The notes below the pieces were generated by a model, which did no database searches, was not told the DNA's origin, and saw only the letters and a program-made list of their open reading frames with translations. Shown one piece after another: positions 1,525 to 57,941 of a DNA stretch of 64,000 nucleotides; within the stretch, counting starts at the first letter, position 1, and each line of letters opens with the position of its first letter. Origin of the DNA: an uncultured Gammaproteobacteria bacterium (GTDB lineage Bacteria > Patescibacteriota > Patescibacteriia > GWA2-47-26); the NCBI GenBank assembly GCA_964532925.1, contig CAZHIP010000001.1:11227-75226 (forward strand), in the 5' to 3' direction. The position numbers were made by a program, and so were the translations under genes.

Positions 1525-3519
1525 ATGAATGTCACTGAATTAGCCCGTCGTTTACGGGTCAACACCGAAGAATTGAAGAACGTGCTTCCGGGCATGGGCT
1601 TTGACTTTGGTCGCCGTGCCATCAAAATTCCCGACCTTGTTGCCTGGAAGATCATCAACGCCTGGCCGTCCTACATTCGTGAACAGCAGAAAAAGAAAGA
1701 AGCCGAACGCGATACCGAGCGTTTGAGTGTTGCGCGTGAAGCTGCAAAAGACATTATGTTGCCGCCAGTCTTTAGTGTCAAAGAATTTGCCGCCTATTTG
1801 GGTTTGCCGGTAACGCGCGTTATTGCTGAACTCATGAAGAACGGCATTTTGGCCGCCATGAACGAGCGAATTGACTACACAACCGCGAGTATTATTGCCA
1901 ATGACCTTGGTTTTTCGGTCAAAGCGAAAGAAAAGGACACCGCCGCCAGTGTGTACGAAGAAACCGCCGACGATACGGTCAAGGAACTCATGGGCAAAGA
2001 AGTCGGGCAGGTGCTCGAAGCTCGTCCGCCGGTGGTGGTCATTATGGGTCACGTTGATCACGGGAAGACTACCCTTCTTGATGCTATTCGCCGCACGAAC
2101 GTTGTTGCCAAAGAAGCTGGTGGCATTACGCAACATATTGGCGCCTATCAAGTAGAAAAGAAAGACCGTCACATTACATTTATCGACACTCCTGGCCACG
2201 AAGCATTTACGACCATGCGTTCTCGTGGTGCGCGTATTGCCGATGTTGCAGTCTTAGTTGTTGCCGCAGACGATGGTGTGCAGCCACAAACACTCGAAGC
2301 ACTTTCAATTATTCAGGCCACCAAAGTACCCTACGCGATTGCGGTTAATAAAATGGATAAACCAGCCGCCGACCCAGAACGCGTCAAACGCGAATTGTCG
2401 GAAAAAGGTGTTATTCCTGAAGATTGGGGAGGTCCGGTACCATTTGTACAGCTTTCTGCGAAGACCGGTGATGGTATCGATGGTCTGCTCGATGTGGTCC
2501 TTATTCTTGCGGATATCAACAAAGATGCAATCATGGCTGACCCGAACGGTCGCGCCATTGGTACGGTTATTGAATCGCACGTTGATGACAAAGAAGGCGT
2601 ACTTGCAACAGTTCTTGTTCAAAACGGCACGTTGAAGCGCGGTGACACCCTCGGTGTTCGCGGTGTTCTCTATGGTCGCGTTCGTGCACTCAAAGATTGG
2701 GCACGCAAAGATGTTTTAAATGTAAAACCAGGTACTCCTGTGCAGGTGTTGGGTCTCAAATCAGCACCAGAAGTCGGTGATGTTATTTCGGTACCACTCG
2801 AAGGCGAAGAACTTTCTTCACAAAAGTTTAAACATCGTGCAACACAGGAACCGTCGGTCATGATTACCGCACCAGCTGAATCGGGTGACGAGACAACGGT
2901 TCGCAACTTCAACATGGTTCTTAAAGCCGACGTGCTTGGTTCACTCGAGGCCATTGTGGCGAGTGTCGAAAAGATTAATACGCCAGAGGTAAAAGCTCGC
3001 GTGATCGCGAAAGGTCTCGGCAATATCACCGAGACCGACATTACGCATGCAGAAACAGGCCAAGCGGTGGTGTATGGTTTTAATGTGAATGCATCACTTA
3101 TCATTAACGACCTTGCACGCACGAAAGGTGTTGATATTCGCATGTACAAAATTATTTATGAACTTCTCGACAACGTGAAGCTTGAGATGGAGAAGTTGCT
3201 CGCACCAGAACTCATCCGTACGTCTGTTGGCCGTATTAAAATCATGCGTATTTTCCGCCAAGAGAAGAATGTGGCCATTACCGGTGGTCGCGTGGAAGAC
3301 GGAAAAGCAATCAAAAAATTGCCCGTCATCGTCATGCGTAATGGTGTCTTTGTTGGCAAAGGTAAGCTTACCGAAGTACAATCAGGCAAGCAGCCGGTAG
3401 ACGAGCTCCCGGGTGGCTCCGAAGGTGGTTTCAAAATTGAAGGCAAGTTTACGATGGAAGAAGGCGACGTGGTCGAAGTTATCCGCGAAGAGGAGCGCGA
3501 ACGACACCTCGAAGATTAG
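1525..3519 (+). CDS. infB: translation initiation factor IF-2
   Basis: GTP-binding motifs [15 protein letters not shown] and DTPGHEAF, with a C-terminal IF-2 beta-barrel region; 664 aa. Confidence 0.95.
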
Positions 3520-3592
3520 TTCTCTTAGATATTAAAATCCAACGGCCAAGCATTGGTTTGGTTTTTGGCTTTTGATATTTGACTGCATTCTT

Positions 3593-3910
3593 ATGGTCCA
3601 CACGATTACTGATCAGAACTTTCAAGCAGAAGTGTTAGAGAGCGACATGGTAACGTTGGTTGATTTTTGGGCACCGTGGTGTGGTCCATGTAAAATCATG
3701 GGACCTGTCATCGACGAAATTGCCGCAGAGATGCCGAACATTAAATTCGGCAAGATGAATGTTGATGAACAGGCAGAAACACCATCGCATTATCAGGTCA
3801 TGTCGATTCCAACGATGATCGTTTTTAAAGGTGGCAAACCAATGGATCAGATGATTGGCGTACAGGACAAAAATGCCATGAAGAAAAAGCTCGAGGCATT
3901 CGCGAAATAA
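3593..3910 (+). CDS. trxA: thioredoxin
   Basis: WAPWCGPCK active site. Start moved to the ATG at 3593 to give the typical ~29-aa spacing before the CGPC site; the ORF track begins at a TTG at 3572. Confidence 0.85.
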   Translation: MVHTITDQNFQAEVLESDMVTLVDFWAPWCGPCKIMGPVIDEIAAEMPNIKFGKMNVDEQAETPSHYQVMSIPTMIVFKGGKPMDQMIGVQDKNAMKKKLEAFAK

Positions 3911-23392: not shown

Positions 23393-23464
23393 TGCGCCTG
23401 CTTGGATTCGAACCAAGAACCAGTCGTGTATAAGACGACTGCTCTGCCGTTGAGCTACAGGCGC
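23393..23464 (-). tRNA. tRNA-Ile (anticodon UAU, predicted AUA decoder); no encoded CCA
   Basis: Reverse complement GCGCCTG-TA-GCTC-AACGGCA-GAGC-A-GTCGT-CTTATAC-ACGAC-TGGTT-CTTGG-TTCGAAT-CCAAG-CAGGCGC-A is a canonical 72-nt cloverleaf with anticodon loop CTTATAC. Confidence 0.8.
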
Positions 23465-23554
23465 GTAATTTCACTGCCTGTATACTACCGCCCCAACTCA
23501 GAAACTTCAATATTATTGCGTTTTAAGGCAAAAAATAGTACGCTTGAAGCTTAT

Positions 23555-25117
23555 ATGAGCACAAAACTACCGCTATTTCTCACAAACCTTGAAGAGCGCC
23601 TCCGTGCGCCAGAGTTTGTATTTATCGCCACTCTTTTGGAGGCGTTTCCAGTCGCCCAGGTTTATTTGGTTGGGGGAGCTGTCCGTGATGCAGCACTTGC
23701 TCGTGAGAGCAAAGACTATGACTTTGTGGTGACTGGTGTTCCGGCCGAAGAGCTCCAGCGCTTTTTGGCTTCTATTGGAATTGTGAACTTTGTCGGTCGC
23801 GTTTTTGGTGTGTTGAAGTTTGTTCCAGATGCGGCATACGACCAAGTGAAGGTGCAAGGCCTCGAACCATTTGATATTGCTTTGCCGCGCACCGAAGTCC
23901 CTGCGGGTACTGGCGGCTACCGCGACGTCGAAGTGCAGTCAGATCACACTATGCGGATTGAAGACGATCTGGGTCGCCGTGACTTTACGGTGAACGCCAT
24001 GGCAGTGAAACTTCTTACGGCAGGTGGGCGTGTGGTGGTCGAAGAGCTGGTTGACCCATTTGGTGGACTCAACGACCTCGAGAAGAAGCTTATTCGTGCA
24101 GTCGGAGAGGCCGAGACGCGTTTCCAAGAAGACTACACCCGCATGCTCCGCGCACTTCGGCTGGCGGTGCAGCTTGGTTTCAAAATTGAACCCGTAACAC
24201 ACGGCGCGATCGAAAAACTCATCGGTCATATCGACGACATGCGCGACGGCGTGCACTTGGTGCCGCGTGAAACCATTGCGAAAGAACTCATCCGTGCGTA
24301 TGTAGCCAAACCACTAGCGGCATTCGATCTCGCCGAAGAGCTCGGCATTCATCGCGTGCTGTTTCCTGAATTCGCGGCGATGAAAACTTGTCCGCAGCCA
24401 CATGAATGGCATGCTGAAGGTGATGTGTTCACGCACACACGACTCGCGATGACTCACCTGGGCTCAAAAGAGTTCGCAGAATTTTTTGGTGATGCAGAAT
24501 GGGACGCGCTTTTGGTTTTTGCGGTACTTTTGCATGACATTGGTAAGCCACCAACACTCAAAACGCCAGAGAAAGACGGAACTGACCGTGTCCGCTTCGA
24601 TGGCCACGACGAAGTTGGTGCAAAAATGGTTGGCGTGATTGCTGATCGTCTTAAGTTGTCCTCCATGCCCGAAGGTTCGCGCTATCACATCAACCGCGAT
24701 CACCTCGTGTGGCTCGTGCGCAACCACCTCATCTCCATGAACCCTGCTGACGAAATGCGTTCAACTACGATTGAAAAATATTTTTACAATCCATTAGTCC
24801 CTGGCGAGCATTTACTGCGCCTCACGTTCTGCGACGGCTCGGCATCTTTGCCGGCAAATGGGGGAGCATCTGATTTGAACAATCTTCGTACCCTGGTCGA
24901 CCGCATGAAAAAGGTTGGCATCATGGCCGAGGCCAAGAAGCGTCTGCCAAAACCACTCATCGACGGCATTGTGGTTATGGAAACACTCAATCTGCCACCC
25001 TCGAAGACCATCGGCGACATCCTGAAAGTCCTTCGCGAGGAGCAACTTCTGGGAAACCTGAAGACTCCAGAGGAAGCCATCGAATACTTGCAGAAGGAAT
25101 ACAAAAAAGAGCCCTAG
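23555..25117 (+). CDS. cca: CCA-adding tRNA nucleotidyltransferase with C-terminal HD domain
   Basis: GGAVRD, DLGRRDFTVNAMAV (class II nucleotidyltransferase head) and the HD motif LLHDIGKP. Start moved to the ATG at 23555 so the CDS clears the tRNA. Confidence 0.8.
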   Translation: MSTKLPLFLTNLEERLRAPEFVFIATLLEAFPVAQVYLVGGAVRDAALARESKDYDFVVTGVPAEELQRFLASIGIVNFVGRVFGVLKFVPDAAYDQVKVQGLEPFDIALPRTEVPAGTGGYRDVEVQSDHTMRIEDDLGRRDFTVNAMAVKLLTAGGRVVVEELVDPFGGLNDLEKKLIRAVGEAETRFQEDYTRMLRALRLAVQLGFKIEPVTHGAIEKLIGHIDDMRDGVHLVPRETIAKELIRAYVAKPLAAFDLAEELGIHRVLFPEFAAMKTCPQPHEWHAEGDVFTHTRLAMTHLGSKEFAEFFGDAEWDALLVFAVLLHDIGKPPTLKTPEKDGTDRVRFDGHDEVGAKMVGVIADRLKLSSMPEGSRYHINRDHLVWLVRNHLISMNPADEMRSTTIEKYFYNPLVPGEHLLRLTFCDGSASLPANGGASDLNNLRTLVDRMKKVGIMAEAKKRLPKPLIDGIVVMETLNLPPSKTIGDILKVLREEQLLGNLKTPEEAIEYLQKEYKKEP

Positions 25118-25131
25118 ACTGGGCTCTTTTG
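25105..25131 (+). terminator. Rho-independent terminator after cca
   Basis: agagccctagactgggctct followed by tttt. Confidence 0.55.
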
Positions 25132-25240
25132 ATTATGAAAGAGGCATCATTAATTGACCATAAGAGAAAACAATGGTACCAATAAGCGTTGTTCTTTTTA
25201 TCGGGCTTCAGATAACAACCAACAGCCAAGGAGAATTCTG

Positions 25241-25843
25241 ATGGTACAGGAGATTCGAATTGAGATGCGCATGAGGAACAACATCCTCTATCGCGCGATT
25301 TTCGATAAATGGCCATCGGTTCAGGTTTTCTGTAGGAAATATGAGCTTGATGCGGGAGTAGTTGGTAAACTCTTGAATTTGAAGTGTTCGCCGCTTAACA
25401 AACACGGTGAGTTCCGGTCGATTTGTAAGCGGCTAGCAGCAATCTTCTTCATGGAGTGTCAGGAGCTCTTTCCGTTGCATCTTTATACTGGGCAGAATCC
25501 GCAGGTAGCCATTGAGGTTTCGTTCGCGGAGCTGCCTCGCGGTACCGCAACGTTACTTCAGATTCCTGCGCCCATGACGGTAGAGGATGAGCTTGATCGT
25601 GCGGAATGTGCGCAGGCTATCGAAGATATACTCAAGACGTTGACGCTACGACAACGGCAAGTCTTACATTTGCGTTTTGGTCTTGAGGATGGCCAAGAGC
25701 GGACACTGAAAGAGGTCGGCGATGTTTTGCGGCTGACTCCGGAGCGTGTTCGTCAGATTGAAGCAAGTGGATTGCGTCGCTTGCGTCATCCCGTCCGCCG
25801 GGACATCCTTCGGGAGTTCGCTGGCCTGAAGGAGGACGAGTAG
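25241..25843 (+). CDS. protein with only a sigma-70 region 4 domain (RpoD C-terminus-like HTH), 200 aa
   Basis: C-terminal LTLRQRQVLHLRFGLEDGQERTLKEVGDVLRLTPERVRQIEASGLRRLRHP closely parallels primary-sigma region 4.2. There is no region 2. ATG at 25241 preceded by AAGGAGA. Confidence 0.55.
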   Translation: MVQEIRIEMRMRNNILYRAIFDKWPSVQVFCRKYELDAGVVGKLLNLKCSPLNKHGEFRSICKRLAAIFFMECQELFPLHLYTGQNPQVAIEVSFAELPRGTATLLQIPAPMTVEDELDRAECAQAIEDILKTLTLRQRQVLHLRFGLEDGQERTLKEVGDVLRLTPERVRQIEASGLRRLRHPVRRDILREFAGLKEDE

Positions 25844-25856
25844 TTTATTGGCCCCT

Positions 25857-25905
25857 TGGCCCAAGGTGCGCGCTCCGTTGCCGCATCTTGGGCCTTTTCT
25901 TTTTA
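25857..25905 (+). terminator. Rho-independent terminator
   Basis: gcccaaggtg...catcttgggc stem followed by cttttcttttt. Confidence 0.5.
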
Positions 25906-25914
25906 AAATTAGCC

Positions 25915-25943
25915 TTGACACAAGGCCGATTTCTGGGTATATT
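25915..25943 (+). promoter_or_regulatory. sigma-70-type promoter upstream of rluD
   Basis: TTGACA, 17-nt spacer, TATATT. Confidence 0.5.
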
Positions 25944-40848: not shown

Positions 40849-41250
40849 CCAGATGACCGGGCGACCGCTGTAGAGCAATCTATAGAGGAAAGTCCGAACA
40901 CCAATTTTGGCGCAAGCCAGAGGAAAACGGTACCATCTAACGGATGGGCAGTCTGACATGGATAACTCTCACGAGGAAACCGTGCTGACGGATTAGTACC
41001 ACAGAGACAATACTAGCTCGAGCGCAAGCTTGGGTGAACGGTGAAAAGTGAGGCGGTGTTACGTTGCGACTCTAAAGGTTTATGCGTGTTGCTACGCCTC
41101 TCGCTCTGCAGTAATGCAGAAACGTGGAAAACCCTACCTGGTGCAAGTCTTTATGACGCATGAGGCTGTACGCGAGTGCAGTCCCAGAGAGATGGTCGTC
41201 CATTTGCTTCGGCAGAGGACAGAATTCGGCTTACAGGTCACCTGGACACC
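40849..41250 (+). ncRNA. rnpB: RNase P RNA (bacterial type A)
   Basis: Conserved P4 strands AGGAAAGTCCG (5') and ACAGAATTCGGCTTA (3'); a GGTACC..TAACGG..GGG region in the P8/P9 position; P1 pairing CCAGATGACC/GGTCACCTGG; followed by a terminator. Confidence 0.8.
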
Positions 41251-45046: not shown

Positions 45047-46203
45047 AAATCGCCATAGACGCCAGACTGTATGGTCTCAAGAACAGAGGTCTTGGGCGTT
45101 TTTTAATTGAGCATTTGAAGGGCCTGGAGTCAGTCGATGAACAAAACTCGTATTCAGTGTTTTTGAAAGAAGAAAATAAGGACGAGTATCAGCCTGCCAA
45201 AAAGAACTTTGTAAAAAAGATCTGGAATACGCCGTGGTATTCATTGAAAGAGCAGACTGATACCAAGGTCTTAAAAGAAGAGCAGGCCGACCTCTATTAC
45301 TTCCCGCACTGGAATGTGCCGATGCTCCTCGGGAAGCCGTATGTGGTGACGATCCATGACATGATTTTGTTTGATTTCCCTGATCGTCGCGCAAGTACGC
45401 AGAGTTGGTTGCGGTACAAACTGAAATACGTCGCCTTTCGCATGCTCATGGGAGCGGTACTTCGTCGTGCCAAGGCGGTCGTGGCTGTTTCCGGCTCAAC
45501 ACGCGACGCGATTTTGAAGCATTTTCCGAACACGAAGCATATTCAGGTCATCTACGAAGGTGCTCCTGAGCTTGCTCCATCGGAAGTGGTTAACCTGGGG
45601 AAGCATGGAATTCAAAAACCATATATACTATATGTAGGTGCGGCGTATCCGCATAAGAATTTGCCGTTCCTCCTGCGTTCGTTCCAAGAAGCGCGAAAAA
45701 CGATTGATTGTCAGCTCGTACTCGTCGGCCGAAAAGACTTTTTTTATGAGCGATTGGCATCCGATGCTGCGCGCTCAGGAATTGATAAAGATGTAGTCTT
45801 TTTTGGCGGCGCAACCGATGGTGAACTTGCGTATCTCTACGAGCATGCACACATGGCAGTCAGTCCGTCGCTGGTTGAAGGGTTTGGGTTTGGTGGACTT
45901 GAGGCAATGACAAAGGGTATTCCTGTTGTTGCTTCTCGGATCTCATGTTTTCGAGAGATTTTCGGAGATGCTCCGCAGTACTTTGATCCAACAAATGAAC
46001 ATGATTGTGCGCGTGCACTTATTTTGGTTTCTCGAGACGAGTCCGCGCGTACCAGCATGATTCAGGTAGGAAACACTATCCCGGTGCGATATAATTGGAA
46101 GAAGAGTGCAGAAGAATATACACATCTTTTTGAACGTTTGGTAAATAACAAGAGCGATGGAGGGTCAACACCACAACAAACGAGCGGTTCGCATCACGCG
46201 TAA
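45043..46203 (+). CDS. GT4-family glycosyltransferase
   Basis: MKIAIDARLYGLKNRGLGRF N-terminus; AVSPSLVEGFGFGGLEAM (EX7E); overlaps the previous gene by 4 nt. Confidence 0.75.
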   Translation: MKIAIDARLYGLKNRGLGRFLIEHLKGLESVDEQNSYSVFLKEENKDEYQPAKKNFVKKIWNTPWYSLKEQTDTKVLKEEQADLYYFPHWNVPMLLGKPYVVTIHDMILFDFPDRRASTQSWLRYKLKYVAFRMLMGAVLRRAKAVVAVSGSTRDAILKHFPNTKHIQVIYEGAPELAPSEVVNLGKHGIQKPYILYVGAAYPHKNLPFLLRSFQEARKTIDCQLVLVGRKDFFYERLASDAARSGIDKDVVFFGGATDGELAYLYEHAHMAVSPSLVEGFGFGGLEAMTKGIPVVASRISCFREIFGDAPQYFDPTNEHDCARALILVSRDESARTSMIQVGNTIPVRYNWKKSAEEYTHLFERLVNNKSDGGSTPQQTSGSHHA

Positions 46204-46282
46204 GGGAGTACAACCCTCACCGCACGTTATTCATTTGGGTAGATCAAAAGAGCGTGTTCGTGTGCAAAAGATAGAGAAACCA

Positions 46283-48400
46283 ATGGCACCACCGCGGTCG
46301 CTGGCCATCGAATTTGCCATTGATTCATTCCGCAATGAAATGGCGGATCGCGCTCGCAATGCGTTTCAGCAATTCAATCGCACGGCAAGTCGTGTTCGTT
46401 CTTTTGGTTCCCGTTCGTTGCGCAAAAAAAGAGAATTACTTTCGACCACAGAAGCATTGGTAGATGCTATGGTTCCAGTGCTTGAGCATGTAAAAGAGGT
46501 GGCAGAAGAGAAATTGTCCTTGCGAAAACGTGTTGCGACCTGGCTTGCGAGTCGGGTGACCACCGCGCATATTTATGTACCACCACGCTCACTTTCGATT
46601 GCCTTTTTCGTGGCAATGCTTGTATTGCTTACCTTGCCATTTGGAGTGATTCACGTATATCGCGATGTAAAGGTGCGCCAAGCTGAATTTAGGGAGAGAA
46701 AGATTGTTATGGTTGCGCTTTCCGACCAGGTAAGTACCTCATTGCGTACCGGTGACCTGGAGGGAGCGTTGCGTGCGCTGCATGCGCTCGAAGAGTCGGT
46801 GCAGGCAGCAGCAGATGCGATTGATGCAAGCGGTGTATTCAAATATGCGCCACCATTGCACCAAACACAGAACGCGTTGAAATCCGCTGTTGCGGCGCTT
46901 GGTCAAGGAAGAGTTGCTTTGGCAGGCGTACAGCGTTTTCCGTGGAATAAAGATGTGTTTATTGCAATAACCAAAACTCTTGATGCTGCAGAGAGGACTG
47001 CGTGGTACGTGGATCGCACTCGCATGGGCATTGATACAGGCCCAGCAAAGAGCTATATTCGTCTCGCAAAAGATAACCTCATGCTTGCGCAAGCATTTTT
47101 GGGGCAGCAAGACAGTCGGTATCTTGTCGTATTTCAGAACGAGAATGAGATTCGGCCGACCGGTGGTTTTATGGGCAGTTTTGCCGTGCTGACTCTCAAA
47201 GACGGTGTGTGGTCAATCGAAATGCCGTCGCAAGGATCATATGCACTTCAGGGGTGGCTCACTACTGCAGTCCGTGCGCCGCGACCATTATCACTCATCA
47301 ATCCGCGGTTTGAGTTTCAAGATGTAAATTGGTTTCCAGATTTCCCTACAACAGCAAAAAAGATTATGTCGTTTTACGAAGATGGGGGAGGGTCGAGTGT
47401 CGATGGGGTCATTGCGGTCAACAGTTCATTTTTAAATGATGTGTTGGCGTTGGCGGGGCCGCTCGATGTGAAAGAGATTAGCCCTGTAGCACTCAAGAAC
47501 GGTACCGTGGTTGAGGCGCTCGAAAAAGCCATTGCACGAGATCGTGCTACCACTGCGCCAAAAGCAGTAATGGGAGGTCTTCTTGATGCGCTTGCCACGC
47601 GATTTCAGTCAGGTGCGGTTGCGCCAATTGCTGCTGCTCGTCTTGCTGCCATTGGTCTTAGTGAAAAAAAGATCCAGCTATATTTCCGTGATGATTCCAA
47701 TCAGTCGGCTGCAGCACGATTGGGTTTTGATGGAGGTATTCCTCGTAGCGGAGATAAGGATTTTTTCATGCTTGTTTCGGCAAATGTTGCTGGAGGTAAG
47801 ACAGATGGTTCCATTCACGATGTCGTGGGCTATAAAGTATCGGTGAACGAGAATGGAGAAATGGTGGCTCATGTGACCTTGACGCGTACCCACGAAGGTT
47901 TGCGTGGAGATGCGTTGCGAGGCGGCAGAAATGTGAGCTATGTTCGGCTGTATGCCCCCTTAGGCAGTGAGTTTTTAGGGGCCAGTGGTTTCAGCAAAGC
48001 TCCTTCATGGCGATTTGAAAACCCTGAATCAACGCTCATTCCCGACGAAGATGTTCGTGCGTCAGAACTTACCGAAAAGATAGACACCAATAGTGGTACA
48101 ATTATTGCAACAGAATCGGGGAAGCAAGTCTTTGGAAACTGGTTCATACTCGACCCTGGAGAAGTAAAAACCGTACAACTTAGGTATCTGTTGCCAAGCC
48201 GTATTACCAAAGACATGCAGAATAAGTATGCGCTTATGGTTGCCAAGCAATCAGGCCGTACCACGGACTTTCATTTTACGATGAATGCACCAGGGTTTAC
48301 TATTGTCGCTCTAGACTCCCAGGAAACAAGTCGTGAGGGATATGCAATGAAACGCGCATTGACGACCGATAGTATTACTCGATTGGTGCTTACACCATAA
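46283..48400 (+). CDS. DUF4012-like membrane-anchored envelope protein
   Basis: Single TM helix then a large extracytoplasmic domain containing VFQNENEIRPTGGFMGSFAV, which I recall as DUF4012-like. Start set at the ATG at 46283, after the upstream stop. Confidence 0.45.
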   Translation: MAPPRSLAIEFAIDSFRNEMADRARNAFQQFNRTASRVRSFGSRSLRKKRELLSTTEALVDAMVPVLEHVKEVAEEKLSLRKRVATWLASRVTTAHIYVPPRSLSIAFFVAMLVLLTLPFGVIHVYRDVKVRQAEFRERKIVMVALSDQVSTSLRTGDLEGALRALHALEESVQAAADAIDASGVFKYAPPLHQTQNALKSAVAALGQGRVALAGVQRFPWNKDVFIAITKTLDAAERTAWYVDRTRMGIDTGPAKSYIRLAKDNLMLAQAFLGQQDSRYLVVFQNENEIRPTGGFMGSFAVLTLKDGVWSIEMPSQGSYALQGWLTTAVRAPRPLSLINPRFEFQDVNWFPDFPTTAKKIMSFYEDGGGSSVDGVIAVNSSFLNDVLALAGPLDVKEISPVALKNGTVVEALEKAIARDRATTAPKAVMGGLLDALATRFQSGAVAPIAAARLAAIGLSEKKIQLYFRDDSNQSAAARLGFDGGIPRSGDKDFFMLVSANVAGGKTDGSIHDVVGYKVSVNENGEMVAHVTLTRTHEGLRGDALRGGRNVSYVRLYAPLGSEFLGASGFSKAPSWRFENPESTLIPDEDVRASELTEKIDTNSGTIIATESGKQVFGNWFILDPGEVKTVQLRYLLPSRITKDMQNKYALMVAKQSGRTTDFHFTMNAPGFTIVALDSQETSREGYAMKRALTTDSITRLVLTP

Positions 48401-54500: not shown

Positions 54501-57500
54501 TTAGCATTTGATGCCGATCCAGACTGGTGCGCTATCGACTTCAACGGTTGCCCCAAAGTCGGCAGGGGTTTCGGCATCAACAATTGTAATGTTTGTAGCC
54601 AATGTGCCTTTTGTGAGCTCTGCATTGAAGTGTTGTATGGCATGTACCACCATCTCATTTTCGCTCTGGATGAGAATACCAACGCGATCTTGTGGCGTAA
54701 GGCCTGCTTTTTTGCGCGTGTCGTTGATCTGGCGCGAGAGTTCGCGGACCAGCCCAAGCTCGGTGAGTTCTGGGGTGAGAACGATGTCCAAACCAACCGT
54801 GGCTTCGCTAACAGCCTTGTTGGGCCATGATTCTGGGATAGATTTCAGAAGTTCAACTTTTTGCACATTTACTTCATCGGCGACAATTTCCAAAAGTTCT
54901 TCTGAGAGTTTGGTGCCGGTAACTGCCAAAGAGGCGAGTGGTTGGCGGACCTTCATTTTGTTTTCGGCGCGCAACGAGTGTGCGGCTTCGACAATGGCAC
55001 GGACAGTGTCCATCTCGTGAACAATTGTAGTGTTCGCGTGTTTTTTGTTTGCAGTTGGCCACTCACTCAAGTGAACCGATTCTTGTTCGCCACCAACTTC
55101 TTGGTACATATGTTCTGCGAGGAATGGAGTGAACGGTGCCAAGAGTTCGGCAAGTGTTATAAGTGCGTAGCGAGTGGTGGCAAGTGCAGCATCTTTATCA
55201 GCACCTTCATCTTTGAAGCGGTCGCGTGAGCGACGCAAGTACCAGGTTGAGAGGTCGTTAATGAATGGTGCAAATAATATTGCGGCCTGACGTACTTCGT
55301 ATTTTTCAAGTGCTGTCGTGGCTTCGGCTACCAGCTCGTTCAGTTTTGCAAGAATCCAGACATCAAGCGGATGCTTCGTGCTCGGTTGTTTGTCTGTATT
55401 TTTTGTTGCGTACATTTGGTAGAACGAGAGCACGTTGCCGAGTGTCATGAGCACACGGTTCATGTCACCAACGCCGCGGTCGGAGAATCGAGATTCTTCG
55501 GCCTCAACGGATGGAGAGGTGAGGAGATAGAGGCGCAGCGCATCAGCGCCGTATTTGTTTATGATCTCTTCGGGTTCTGGATAGTTTTTGAGGCGCTTGG
55601 ACATTTTGCGACCATCTTCGGCGAGTAAGATGCCGTTGACAATACAGTTTTTGAACGATGATTTTCCAAAGAGGGCAACACTAAGCACGAGCATGGTGTA
55701 AAACCAGCCACGCGTCTGATCAATACCTTCCGCAATGAATTCGCCGGGGAAAGAATGTTCAAAACCAGCCTTGTCTTCAAATGGGTAGTGCTTTGAAGCA
55801 TACGGCATGGCACCCGATTCAAACCAGCAGTCGAGTACTTCCTCGATGCGAGTCATTGTTCCGCCGCAACTCTTCTCGCACGGCCACGTCACCGCATCAA
55901 TTACGGGGCGATGTAGGTTGATTTCGCCAGCCTCGTTTACGAGTGTACCAAGAAACGGAATCTCAATAGGTGTCGCAAACTCTGGATACGTAAGGTCCTG
56001 TACACCATGTGCCGTTTTTGCGCTCATTGCCCACAAAACCATGAGGAGTGGGTCGCCATGCGAAACAATCAAGATCGTTTCGTTTTCGTGACCAGCATCA
56101 ATTGCCTTGATTGTTGTCATCATGCGCACCACCAGTTCTGACCAGGTTTCATTTTCGCCAATCTTTTTTTGGAAGCGTTCTTCTTGGACGGAGAATTGTG
56201 ATTGGTGCGCGCTAACTGGTTTGCCGTCAAAGCCAGGTAAGTTGAATTCGTGTAATCCAGTGTTTGTTTCTACAGGTAAGCCTAATGTTTCAGCAACAAT
56301 GGTGGCAGTTTCTTGCGTGCGGAAAAATGGTGAAGCAATGATCTTGGTGACGCCTTTGGTTTTTAATTCCTCACCAGCTTTTTTTGCACGAGCCTGACCA
56401 TTTTTTGTCAGCGGATATTGAGCGCTTGTTTCAAGTGATGCACTAATAACATCTTGAGTGTTTGATTCGCTTTCACCGTGACGCATGAAGATAAACGTAT
56501 TGCGCTTGGTGGCCTTTTTGAGGAGTGTCTCGACGGATGGAACACACTCGACGTGTTTGCATTCGTTACACTGCCAGACGGGTAGCGGTGTACCCCAGTA
56601 GCGGTTACGGGAAATTGCCCAATCGCGTGCTTCGCTAATCCAGTTACCAAAACGACCGCCACCAACATGTTCGGGCACCCAGTTGATCTTTTTATTTGCC
56701 GTTACGAGGTCATCGCGCATTTCGGAGACGCGGACAAACCATGTGTCGATGGCCTTATAGAGAAGCGGGCTATCACAGCGCCAGCAGTGTGGATAGGAGT
56801 GAGTTGTTGTGGTTTTATGGAGGAGCTTTTCGCCCAGAGCCTCCATGATAAGTGGGTTGGTCTTTTTGAAAAACATGCCTTCGTATGGCGCGACAAGCTT
56901 CGTGAAGTGGCCGTTGCCATCAAGCGGATCAACCATTGGAATATGATTGGCAGAAGCGAGTTTGAAGTCATCTTCGCCAAACGCTGGAGCAATGTGGACA
57001 ATGCCCGTACCATCTGTCGTCGTGACGAAATCTGCAACGTGCACTTTGAATGCACCTTCGCTTGCTTTGTCAGCAAAGAAACCAAAGAGTGGCTCGTAGG
57101 TGATGCCAGCTAGAGTAGAGCCTTTTCGTTCTGTAAGAGCTTCGTATTCGCCAGGGAACGATGAAAGGCGATCTTTTGCTACGATGAGTTGTTCACAATT
57201 TACCACAATAGTGGTGTAAGTGATGTCAGCCCCAACCGCCAATGCCATGTTCGCAGGCAATGTCCATGGAGTGGTGGTCCAGGCTACGAGGTATGTTGGT
57301 TTCGAGAATTTTTTGTCGGTGATTTTAAATTTTACAAACACGGCCGGGTCTTGCACGTCGCGGTATGCACCTGGTTGGTTTACTTCAAAGTTTGAAAGCG
57401 GGGTTGCGCAGCGTGGGCAGTAGGGAAGCACTTTGTTGCCTTTGTAGATTTTTTTGTCTTCGTGAAGGCGTGAGAAAACCCACCAGATGGACTCCATAAA

Positions 57501-57941
57501 TGAAGCGTCCATGGTGCGGTACGGTGTACGCATATCGACCCAGCGGCCGGTGCGCTCAATAGTCTTTTCCCAATCATTTGTGTAGCGGAGCACGATAGAA
57601 CGGCATGCTTCATTAAACTTGGCCATGCCAAGCTTTTCTTCGATATCGCGTTTGCCGGAGATCTTCAAGTCTTTTTCGGTTTCGTATTCCACCGGCAATC
57701 CGTGACAATCCCAGCCCCACTGACGAGGCACGCTATAGCCCTTCATGCTCTTAAAACGCGGAATGACATCTTTTATGGTGCCAGCCAAAATATGGCCATA
57801 ATGTGGTAATCCGGTGGCAAACGGCGGGCCATCGTAAAAGACAAACTCACCGTTCGGTGACTTCTTGGTTAAGGTCTTTTCGAAGATGCCTTTTTCCTTC
57901 CAATTCGTGAGTATTTCTTGTTCGCGTTCTGGTATTGACAT
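54501..57941 (-). CDS. ileS: isoleucyl-tRNA synthetase (type 2) carrying an inserted histidine-phosphatase (PGAM-like) domain
   Basis: HIGH-class PFATGLPHYGHIL, WAISRNRYWGTPLPVW, KMSKR. Residues ~480-667 (FIFMRHGESESN ... RTQETA ... SHGD) form a histidine-phosphatase-like domain between WQCNEC and CEKSCGG, before LHRPVIDA/WFESG. Total 1146 aa. Confidence 0.9.
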   Translation of the reverse strand: MSIPEREQEILTNWKEKGIFEKTLTKKSPNGEFVFYDGPPFATGLPHYGHILAGTIKDVIPRFKSMKGYSVPRQWGWDCHGLPVEYETEKDLKISGKRDIEEKLGMAKFNEACRSIVLRYTNDWEKTIERTGRWVDMRTPYRTMDASFMESIWWVFSRLHEDKKIYKGNKVLPYCPRCATPLSNFEVNQPGAYRDVQDPAVFVKFKITDKKFSKPTYLVAWTTTPWTLPANMALAVGADITYTTIVVNCEQLIVAKDRLSSFPGEYEALTERKGSTLAGITYEPLFGFFADKASEGAFKVHVADFVTTTDGTGIVHIAPAFGEDDFKLASANHIPMVDPLDGNGHFTKLVAPYEGMFFKKTNPLIMEALGEKLLHKTTTTHSYPHCWRCDSPLLYKAIDTWFVRVSEMRDDLVTANKKINWVPEHVGGGRFGNWISEARDWAISRNRYWGTPLPVWQCNECKHVECVPSVETLLKKATKRNTFIFMRHGESESNTQDVISASLETSAQYPLTKNGQARAKKAGEELKTKGVTKIIASPFFRTQETATIVAETLGLPVETNTGLHEFNLPGFDGKPVSAHQSQFSVQEERFQKKIGENETWSELVVRMMTTIKAIDAGHENETILIVSHGDPLLMVLWAMSAKTAHGVQDLTYPEFATPIEIPFLGTLVNEAGEINLHRPVIDAVTWPCEKSCGGTMTRIEEVLDCWFESGAMPYASKHYPFEDKAGFEHSFPGEFIAEGIDQTRGWFYTMLVLSVALFGKSSFKNCIVNGILLAEDGRKMSKRLKNYPEPEEIINKYGADALRLYLLTSPSVEAEESRFSDRGVGDMNRVLMTLGNVLSFYQMYATKNTDKQPSTKHPLDVWILAKLNELVAEATTALEKYEVRQAAILFAPFINDLSTWYLRRSRDRFKDEGADKDAALATTRYALITLAELLAPFTPFLAEHMYQEVGGEQESVHLSEWPTANKKHANTTIVHEMDTVRAIVEAAHSLRAENKMKVRQPLASLAVTGTKLSEELLEIVADEVNVQKVELLKSIPESWPNKAVSEATVGLDIVLTPELTELGLVRELSRQINDTRKKAGLTPQDRVGILIQSENEMVVHAIQHFNAELTKGTLATNITIVDAETPADFGATVEVDSAPVWIGIKC

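Follow-up and report, generated by a model that had tools for sequence, protein, structure and literature searches.

The window analyzed here is a 64,000-nucleotide (nt) stretch of contig CAZHIP010000001.1 (assembly GCA_964532925.1, positions 11,227 to 75,226 of the forward strand), deposited under the name of an uncultured Gammaproteobacteria bacterium and placed by GTDB in the Patescibacteriota. It contains a gene for a 200-amino-acid (aa) protein that joins a predicted XRE/lambda-repressor-like helix-turn-helix (HTH) domain to region 4 of a sigma factor (Table 1). The gene lies between the CCA-adding-enzyme gene and rluD, in a neighborhood of housekeeping functions (S6-SSB-S18, a methyltransferase, the CCA-adding enzyme, RluD, Cmk, L19, and UvrA), and no phage genes are found nearby. 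Public assemblies carry a call for the identical protein (P0001), and its start codon agrees with the N-termini of the aligned homologues; in the same frame, the longest possible open reading frame (ORF) begins just 87 nt further 5'. The CCA-adding-enzyme gene stops at 25117, 124 nt before the ATG, and the terminator hairpin at its end isolates the ORF as a transcription unit of its own. The gene also has the Shine-Dalgarno sequence and the intrinsic terminator that the original prediction had assigned to it, the terminator hairpin folding at -30.7 kcal/mol (z=-5.6; none of 200 shuffled sequences folded as well) and being followed by UUUUCUUUUU. The ORF is therefore an independent, self-contained transcription unit.

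Table 1. Positions of the gene, its expression signals and the segments encoding its protein domains, numbered along the window
Feature	Position	Strand	Details
Hairpin of the upstream CCA-adding-enzyme terminator	25105..25130	+	10-bp stem, -16.6 kcal/mol, z=-3.1, followed by UUUUGAUU
Candidate promoter (tentative)	25154..25182	+	TTGACC 25154-25159; 17-nt spacer with TGg 25174-25176; weak -10 TACCAA 25177-25182
Shine-Dalgarno sequence AAGGAGA	25228..25234	+	6 nt 5' of the ATG; read from the sequence
Coding sequence (P0001)	25241..25843	+	ATG 25241; TAG 25841-25843; 200 aa plus stop
N-terminal domain (aa 4-94), predicted	25250..25522	+	XRE/lambda-repressor-like five-helix HTH clasped by two beta-strands
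Flexible linker (aa 95-113, ~20 residues)	25523..25579	+	family motif L-P ... L-P-A-P; pLDDT 55-79
Sigma-70 region 4 (aa 114-194)	25580..25822	+	regions 4.1 and 4.2, HTH aa 156-181, RHP motif, C-terminal helix H5
Intrinsic terminator of the gene	25858..25904	+	hairpin 25858-25894 plus U-tract

The site upstream of the gene is a tentative promoter. A consensus promoter scan of the plus strand did not report it because its -10 element matches at 3 of 6 positions only. Its spacer holds a 5-bp inverted repeat (ACCAT-N12-ATGGT, 25158-25179, plus strand), read from the sequence, which may either serve as an autoregulatory operator or have arisen by chance. Just 3' of the gene lies a canonical promoter (TTGACA-17-TATATT, 25915-25943), and a clear TTGACA is present 5' of most chromosomal relatives of the gene and 5' of many family genes. 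By these sequences, promoters of the Candidate Phyla Radiation (CPR, Patescibacteria) are canonical.

The C-terminal half is a complete region 4 of the primary-sigma type

The Pfam Sigma70_r4 profile (PF04545) matched aa 131-183 with E=1.2e-15 and 57.2 bits, well above the gathering threshold of 24.1, and was covered from position 2 to 50 of its 50 positions. The NCBIfam models for RpoD, SigA and RpoS aligned at aa 113-195 with E-values down to 1e-23, through the C-terminal ends of the models only; the scores were far below the cut-offs for full-length sigma factors and the alignments were confined to aa 110-200. The best match in the PDB was region 4 of Bacillus subtilis SigA (aa 124-193, E=9e-20, ~58% identity over 70 residues), followed by the primary sigma factors of Staphylococcus aureus, cyanobacteria, mycobacteria and Escherichia coli, and altogether its region 4 shares 58-63% identity with that of primary sigma factors. 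It shares with the group-1 factors RpoD and SigA the helices of regions 4.1 and 4.2, the -35-reading residues, the basic 593-603 patch, the RHP motif and the C-terminal helix H5. In E. coli sigma70 numbering, R554, R562, L573, E585, R586, R588, Q589, R596, R599, H600, P601, L607 and F610 are all retained; Pro stands at the position of R584 and Lys at that of E574. E585, R588 and Q589 correspond to aa 168, 171 and 172 of the window protein. The region-4 match through to the RHP tail, as originally described, was thus confirmed and extends to H5; the C-terminus is a complete, true region 4 of the primary-sigma (group-1) type.

Unlike RpoD and SigA, the protein has no regions 1.2, 2 and 3, its region 4 is joined to an unrelated N-terminal HTH, and two residues are replaced (R584 to Pro, E574 to Lys). 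A Pfam search of the protein for Sigma70_r2, r3 and r1_2 at E<=1 gave no match. Region 4 with its -35-reading HTH is present and region 2 is absent; the protein is not a sigma factor. Lacking regions 1.2, 2 and 3, it can neither bind the beta' clamp helices nor melt the -10 element. MzaA of the MZA anti-phage system was also considered and rejected, since the protein scored 83.6 bits against a cut-off of 800 with NF041931 and covered profile positions 633-715 only. Membership in a defense system was rejected as well, the PADLOC match to MzaA being confined to region 4.

The N-terminal half is predicted to be a divergent XRE-like HTH domain

No match to aa 1-120 was found in Pfam, NCBIfam or PHROG, in keeping with the earlier observation that sigma regions 2 and 3 are missing from the N-terminus. 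AlphaFold2 supplied with the family alignment modeled the protein with a mean predicted local distance difference test score (pLDDT) of 89, both domains exceeding 90 and the linker reaching 55-79. The predicted template modeling score (pTM) was 0.51, so the orientation of the N-domain relative to region 4 is undefined. When the N-domain was modeled alone, pLDDT was 86 and pTM 0.71. Helices are predicted at aa 14-21, 27-33, 38-45, 60-68 and 73-82, and beta-strands at aa 4-10 and 88-94; this is the five-helix arrangement of the XRE fold, with helices 2 and 3 as the HTH. Sequence-profile methods gave nothing significant, and the domain was identified by fold comparison. When 34 family N-domains were compared with Pfam, marginal matches were obtained for 8 of them (HTH_3 for 1, E=0.19; HTH_26 for 1, E=0.033; HTH_35 for 6, best E=0.0037) and none of the 34 reached a curated Pfam HTH threshold. 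A PDB profile search with the N-domain returned nothing significant, and hhalign against the 434 repressor gave a non-significant probability of 3%, yet in the expected register. The N-domain is therefore predicted, from its modeled fold, to be a divergent XRE/lambda-repressor-like HTH that lies outside Pfam coverage and deserves a family definition.

The N-terminal ~100 residues are a conserved, folded, non-sigma domain. The predicted fold is XRE-like and not that of sigma region 2. The absence of sigma regions 2 and 3 in the original description is borne out, but the N-terminus is not featureless, and "stand-alone" was the wrong term for a region 4 that is fused to a conserved domain of predicted XRE type. 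Compared with the Cro/cI regulators, the N-domain has an extra two-stranded beta clasp, matches none of the Pfam XRE families significantly in sequence, and is not accompanied by an evident dimerization domain.

The protein belongs to a large CPR family with two conserved modules

A word-indexed homologue search with aa 1-120 recovered the protein itself only. Exhaustive HMMER searching with the N-domain alone, over 1.84 billion representatives clustered at 50% identity, detected 508 clusters at E<=1e-3 and 174 at E<=1e-10, mostly of 180-220 aa. Region 4 was recognizable in 136 of the best 150 N-domain relatives. An alignment of 61 members shows one plan: an N-terminal block (consensus KEIRIEARxRNNxLWHAIFDxWxSVxAFCR...VGxLLNLKxSP...G.Y..C..LA......LFPxxLY), a variable linker with an LPAP motif, and region 4.

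To describe conservation in region 4, the 136 family domains were mapped onto E. coli sigma70 numbering. The -35-reading residues are widely kept: R554 in 84% (Lys in a further 11%), R562 in 66%, T572 in 74%, E585 in 63%, R586 in 88%, R588 in 70%, Q589 in 90% and K593 in 52% (Arg in a further 23%). Of the five key residues for DNA reading (R554, E585, R586, R588 and Q589), 97 members keep at least 4. R584, which is Pro in the window protein, is Arg in only 32% of the family. The basic patch and tail are represented by R596 (69%), L598 (84%), R599 (79%), H600 (50%) and P601 (59%), and H5, where alignable, by L607 (82%) and F610 (69%). By a loose pattern with a high chance rate, an H5-like L..F tail was found in 85 of the 136 members. 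The median identity of the family to sigma70 residues 548-601 is 48%.

In the N-domain, the scaffold (N13, I20, F30, N46, L47, P51, P78 and Y82) is nearly invariant, and variation is greatest where the predicted recognition helix begins (aa 37-40 and 43), as would be expected of an HTH whose specificity differs from member to member. Two variants depart from the common plan. P0079 (288 aa) consists of three tandem N-domains without region 4, showing that the N-domain also occurs as an independent module. The long forms P0037, P0087 and P0142 (328-350 aa; long forms span 300-350 aa) carry a conserved C-terminal extension of ~140 aa after the N-domain and region 4; one long-form gene (locus L027, 1557-2558) lies 3' of an extracytoplasmic function (ECF) sigma gene and a 266-aa ORF.

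Nearly all named family members come from Patescibacteria chromosomes, and a few lie on phage-like contigs, which is where the examination of homologues and genomic contexts recommended at the outset has led. Among GTDB species genomes, relatives were found in Uhrbacteria, Falkowbacteria, Magasanikbacteria, Staskawiczbacteria, Peribacteraceae, Parcubacteria and Patescibacteria. Four loci carry other labels ("uncultured Gammaproteobacteria" three times and "Vicinamibacterales" once). At least two of these labels look wrong, because locus L015 shares the order ThiI-[pair]-RsmI-MetRS with a Parcubacteria contig and the UvrA encoded on the contig of locus L010 ranks among Patescibacteria UvrAs. 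The UvrA of the window is likewise closest to proteins of Parcubacteria, Patescibacteria, Kerfeldbacteria and Doudnabacteria, its nearest named relative being 58% identical. The family is large, uncharacterized, essentially CPR-restricted, and built from two known kinds of module.

A search for a gene neighbor conserved across the family found none, only synteny at the level of lineages: chromosomal contexts differ between lineages and are common within them. The window and L005 share S6-SSB-S18 and the methyltransferase; L004, L008 and L026 share PheS, an M50 peptidase, the family gene, an Asp/Glu racemase and PGM; and in both L015 (5371-6642) and L016 (3067-4379) tandem paralogous copies of the XRE and region-4 gene lie between thiI and rsmI-metG. 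In the L015 pair, region 4 is canonical in one copy (IRMIEAQALRKLRHP) and diverged in the other (VSRIEMDAFVKLKRED). This lineage-level synteny points to vertical inheritance. Around the family gene of L009 and L013, from one Magasanikbacteria and one Patescibacteria group, several paralogous genes for TrmB-type HTH regulators (~240 aa) were found.

Two relatives are on IMG/VR viral contigs. In one of these (L022, IMGVR_UViG_3300031983_000023), the family gene lies between the large terminase gene and an Acb2/Tad1-like gene plus a portal gene. The same contig contains, at 3185-3900, about 18-20 tandem 36-nt units of the form GAGAAACCCA-N8-GAGCGGGCCA-N8 just 5' of putative small and large terminase genes; on the plus strand these encode a 12-residue repeat (EKPxxxERAxxx), and they represent either a repeat protein or an array of DNA sites. 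Further relatives are on contigs that carry many hypothetical genes together with ParB-like genes. No family member was found in 50,697 GenBank phage records, where only region-4 matches to RpoD-like genes appeared, and a viral fold search in BFVD returned sigma-factor and region-4 proteins only, without the XRE plus region-4 architecture.

Other features of the window

A tRNA gene on the minus strand (23393-23464; Rfam, 71 bits) overlaps both the longest ORF of the CCA-adding enzyme (23402-25117, plus strand), at its 5' end, and the public call of that gene, equivalent to window position 23426; the enzyme probably starts at a Met near 23555 (MSTKLPLF...). Bacterial class A RNase P RNA (159 bits) is encoded at 40849-41249 (plus strand). 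The ORF at 46157-48400 (plus strand) encodes a DUF4012 protein (E=1e-27), and a DUF4012-containing family is discussed among the CPR families of PMC6744442. At 54501-57941 (minus strand) lies the gene for a 1145-aa IleRS-like class I aminoacyl-tRNA synthetase (tRNA-synt_1, E=1e-140; Anticodon_1), which has an unusual insertion, a histidine-phosphatase-superfamily domain (His_Phos_1, aa 483-645, E=6e-30).

A bipartite, promoter-directed regulator is the favored interpretation

We favor the reading that the gene product, a member of a Patescibacteria family, is a bipartite, promoter-directed DNA-binding regulator that represses selected promoters by competition, and put the probability of this reading at roughly 45%. 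From the architecture described above (region 4, predicted XRE domain and linker) we infer what DNA the protein binds and in which direction it regulates. Having kept the -35-reading residues of sigma70, the region-4 module would sit on a TTGACA-like -35 element, and the XRE module, whose base-contacting positions vary between members, would read a neighboring gene-specific operator. The two HTHs would act as two half-site readers of one monomer, the composite site consisting of a TTGACA-like hexamer and an adjacent half-site; a constant reader of the -35 type tethered to an HTH of variable specificity points to such an arrangement. Because CPR promoters are canonical, composite sites would coincide with real -35 elements. 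With the hexamer needed by the housekeeping sigma factor occupied, the default outcome would be promoter-selective repression by competition; if region 4 also keeps its contact with RNA polymerase, the same binding could recruit the polymerase instead. The suggestion that the protein competes with region 4 of RpoD fits the retained -35-reading residues, and competition for the beta-flap fits less strongly, through the retained H5 helix. An anti-sigma role in the sense of AsiA or Rsd is not supported, since nothing suggests that the protein binds a sigma factor, and we detected no homology to anti-sigma factors or appropriators of the AsiA, Rsd or gp39 type that target region 4.

The structure 1RIO, in which the N-terminal domain of lambda cI and a sigma region 4 are bound to DNA, places an XRE-fold domain beside region 4 on promoter DNA, the arrangement proposed here within one polypeptide. 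Unlike in 1RIO, the two modules are covalently linked, and the clasp and the lack of an evident dimerization domain set the protein apart from that complex too. Several observations weigh against the favored interpretation. The XRE assignment comes from predicted structure only, with no significant Pfam or PDB sequence match. A recurrent composite DNA motif was sought in the upstream regions of relatives, at promoter-like sites of the window and in the repeats of phage-like loci, and nothing convincing was found. With R584 replaced by Pro and E574 by Lys, the window protein may differ in its reading of the 3' half of TTGACA. The higher identity of the N-domain (42% overall in the family, versus 32% for region 4) is partly an ascertainment effect, because the family was gathered by N-domain similarity, which inflates N-domain conservation. 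Finally, the direction of regulation, repression or activation, is purely our inference.

Alternative explanations

The closest competitor, which we regard as possible but doubtful, is a region-4 swap, that is, a single-chain sigma appropriation in which region 4 docks on the beta-flap tip of RNA polymerase, the XRE domain gives the polymerase an additional or alternative DNA contact upstream, and dedicated promoters are activated. The seat on the flap would be gained by displacing region 4 of the housekeeping sigma factor, or on a polymerase whose flap is free, which resembles T4 AsiA with MotA or phage LtrA. Region 4 is complete, including helices H1 and H2 of region 4.1 and the group-1-specific C-terminal helix H5; L548, L551, V558, L559, F563, L598, L607 and F610 are conserved where alignable, but the same hydrophobic residues also form the core of the domain. 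The H5 and RHP tail are dispensable for an HTH that only binds DNA, as the ECF region 4 and the LuxR/GerE domains, which are without them, illustrate, and their retention here speaks for a polymerase contact. In sigma70 it is H1, H2 and H5 that touch the beta-flap (PMC2988021). The count of 85 members with an H5-like tail likewise favors docking, although the pattern's looseness weakens it and H5 is less conserved than the DNA-reading residues. Phage activators of late genes whose sigma similarity is confined to region 4 are known in the LtrA family, and LtrA activates the terS/late operon (Quiles-Puchalt et al. 2013, PMC3753634). Like LtrA, the window protein is small and has sigma similarity in region 4 only, and its relative L022 lies within a phage packaging module, between TerL and portal. 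LtrA proteins, however, have "limited similarity" to region 4, belong to phages of Gram-positive bacteria and lack an XRE-like domain (PMC3753634), whereas the window gene is chromosomal in a CPR bacterium rather than phage-borne beside a terminase or late operon; only some distant relatives are on phages, and its PHROG matches are to sigma-factor families only, via region 4. T4 AsiA/MotA appropriation and T4 gp33 are conceptually alike in that the contact between region 4, the beta-flap and the -35 element is replaced or re-used to re-target RNA polymerase (PMC2988021). They have no sequence or fold relationship to the window protein, and AsiA and MotA bind sigma region 4, whereas the window protein is itself a region 4. 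Somewhat less probable still is a cellular factor acting CPR-wide as a "region 4 in trans", with the sigma-4 module on the beta-flap in place of region 4 of the housekeeping sigma factor and the XRE module serving as a new upstream promoter element. One possible relative of such a factor is fam21714, a near-universal CPR family (Meheust et al. 2019, PMC6744442, Supplementary Data 1) that is listed as CPR-enriched with function "unknown" and Sigma70_r4 as the only recognized domain, and that comprises 1320 proteins of length 346 from 1250 CPR genomes versus 2 non-CPR genomes; it is not discussed in the text of that paper. Compared by description only, its length and Pfam profile are similar to those of the long forms P0037, P0087 and P0142, and fam21714 may be the long form of the family, its listed 346 aa differing from the 200 aa of the window protein. 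Our literature searches on stand-alone region 4 in CPR found no paper describing the family or its XRE plus region-4 architecture.

The remaining explanations are harder to reconcile with the data. A family that is mainly a CPR-phage transcription factor, acting as late-gene activator or lysogeny regulator, with the window copy a domesticated leftover of little host function, would account for the relatives on viral contigs, one of them between terminase and portal, for those on the contigs with ParB-like genes, and for an XRE fold typical of phage repressors. It is improbable as an account of the window gene and fits it poorly because of the housekeeping context, the synteny common to different CPR lineages and the intact ORF with its own Shine-Dalgarno sequence and terminator; the failure to find a relative in the GenBank phage records also counts against it, and for some copies of the gene it is possible. 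We think it more improbable again that the protein is half of a split sigma factor, supplying region 4 in trans to a protein with region 2 (or 2 and 3) in the manner of SigO-RsoA or T4 gp55/gp33. The presence of region 4 without region 2 and the tandem paralogue pairs in L015 and L016 would agree with it, but both partners of each pair are XRE plus region-4 proteins, and neither the window nor any of ~20 distinct loci has an adjoining region-2-like ORF. No second sigma-like ORF was found within the 64-kb window, and phmmer with SigA over 282 kb of related loci found no region-2 partner, only the region 4 of the family itself. Supplementary Data 1 of PMC6744442 lists the canonical full-length RpoD family fam00428 for 2026 CPR genomes, which argues that the primary sigma factor is not split. 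We give almost no credence to a decayed sigma paralogue or pseudogene, the other suggestion of the original prediction, or to a full-length sigma factor hidden by a frameshift. Only the first impression of a region 4 without recognizable regions 2 or 3 favors them; the N-terminal 100 residues are instead a conserved, confidently folded non-sigma domain, and at least 508 clusters share the two-domain architecture and conserve residues in each domain. The hidden factor was looked for and rejected: the gap of 124 nt is too short for sigma regions 2 and 3, and together with the upstream terminator and a longest ORF that starts only 87 nt further 5' it leaves no room for them.

Implications for Patescibacteria

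The family fuses a gene-specific HTH to the intact -35-reading, flap-binding module of a primary sigma factor. If region 4 reads DNA only, this would be a case of domain re-use in which a promoter-element reader is recycled as half of a repressor. If it binds RNA polymerase as well, cells would have a new means of re-targeting the polymerase without a full alternative sigma factor, and a "region 4 in trans" acting across CPR would be the host's single-polypeptide equivalent of phage sigma appropriation in organisms with very few conventional transcription factors. Patescibacteria have tiny genomes, few recognizable regulators and almost no experimental genetics, and the family is a concrete, testable candidate for the tuning of promoter use by CPR bacteria and by the viruses that infect them.
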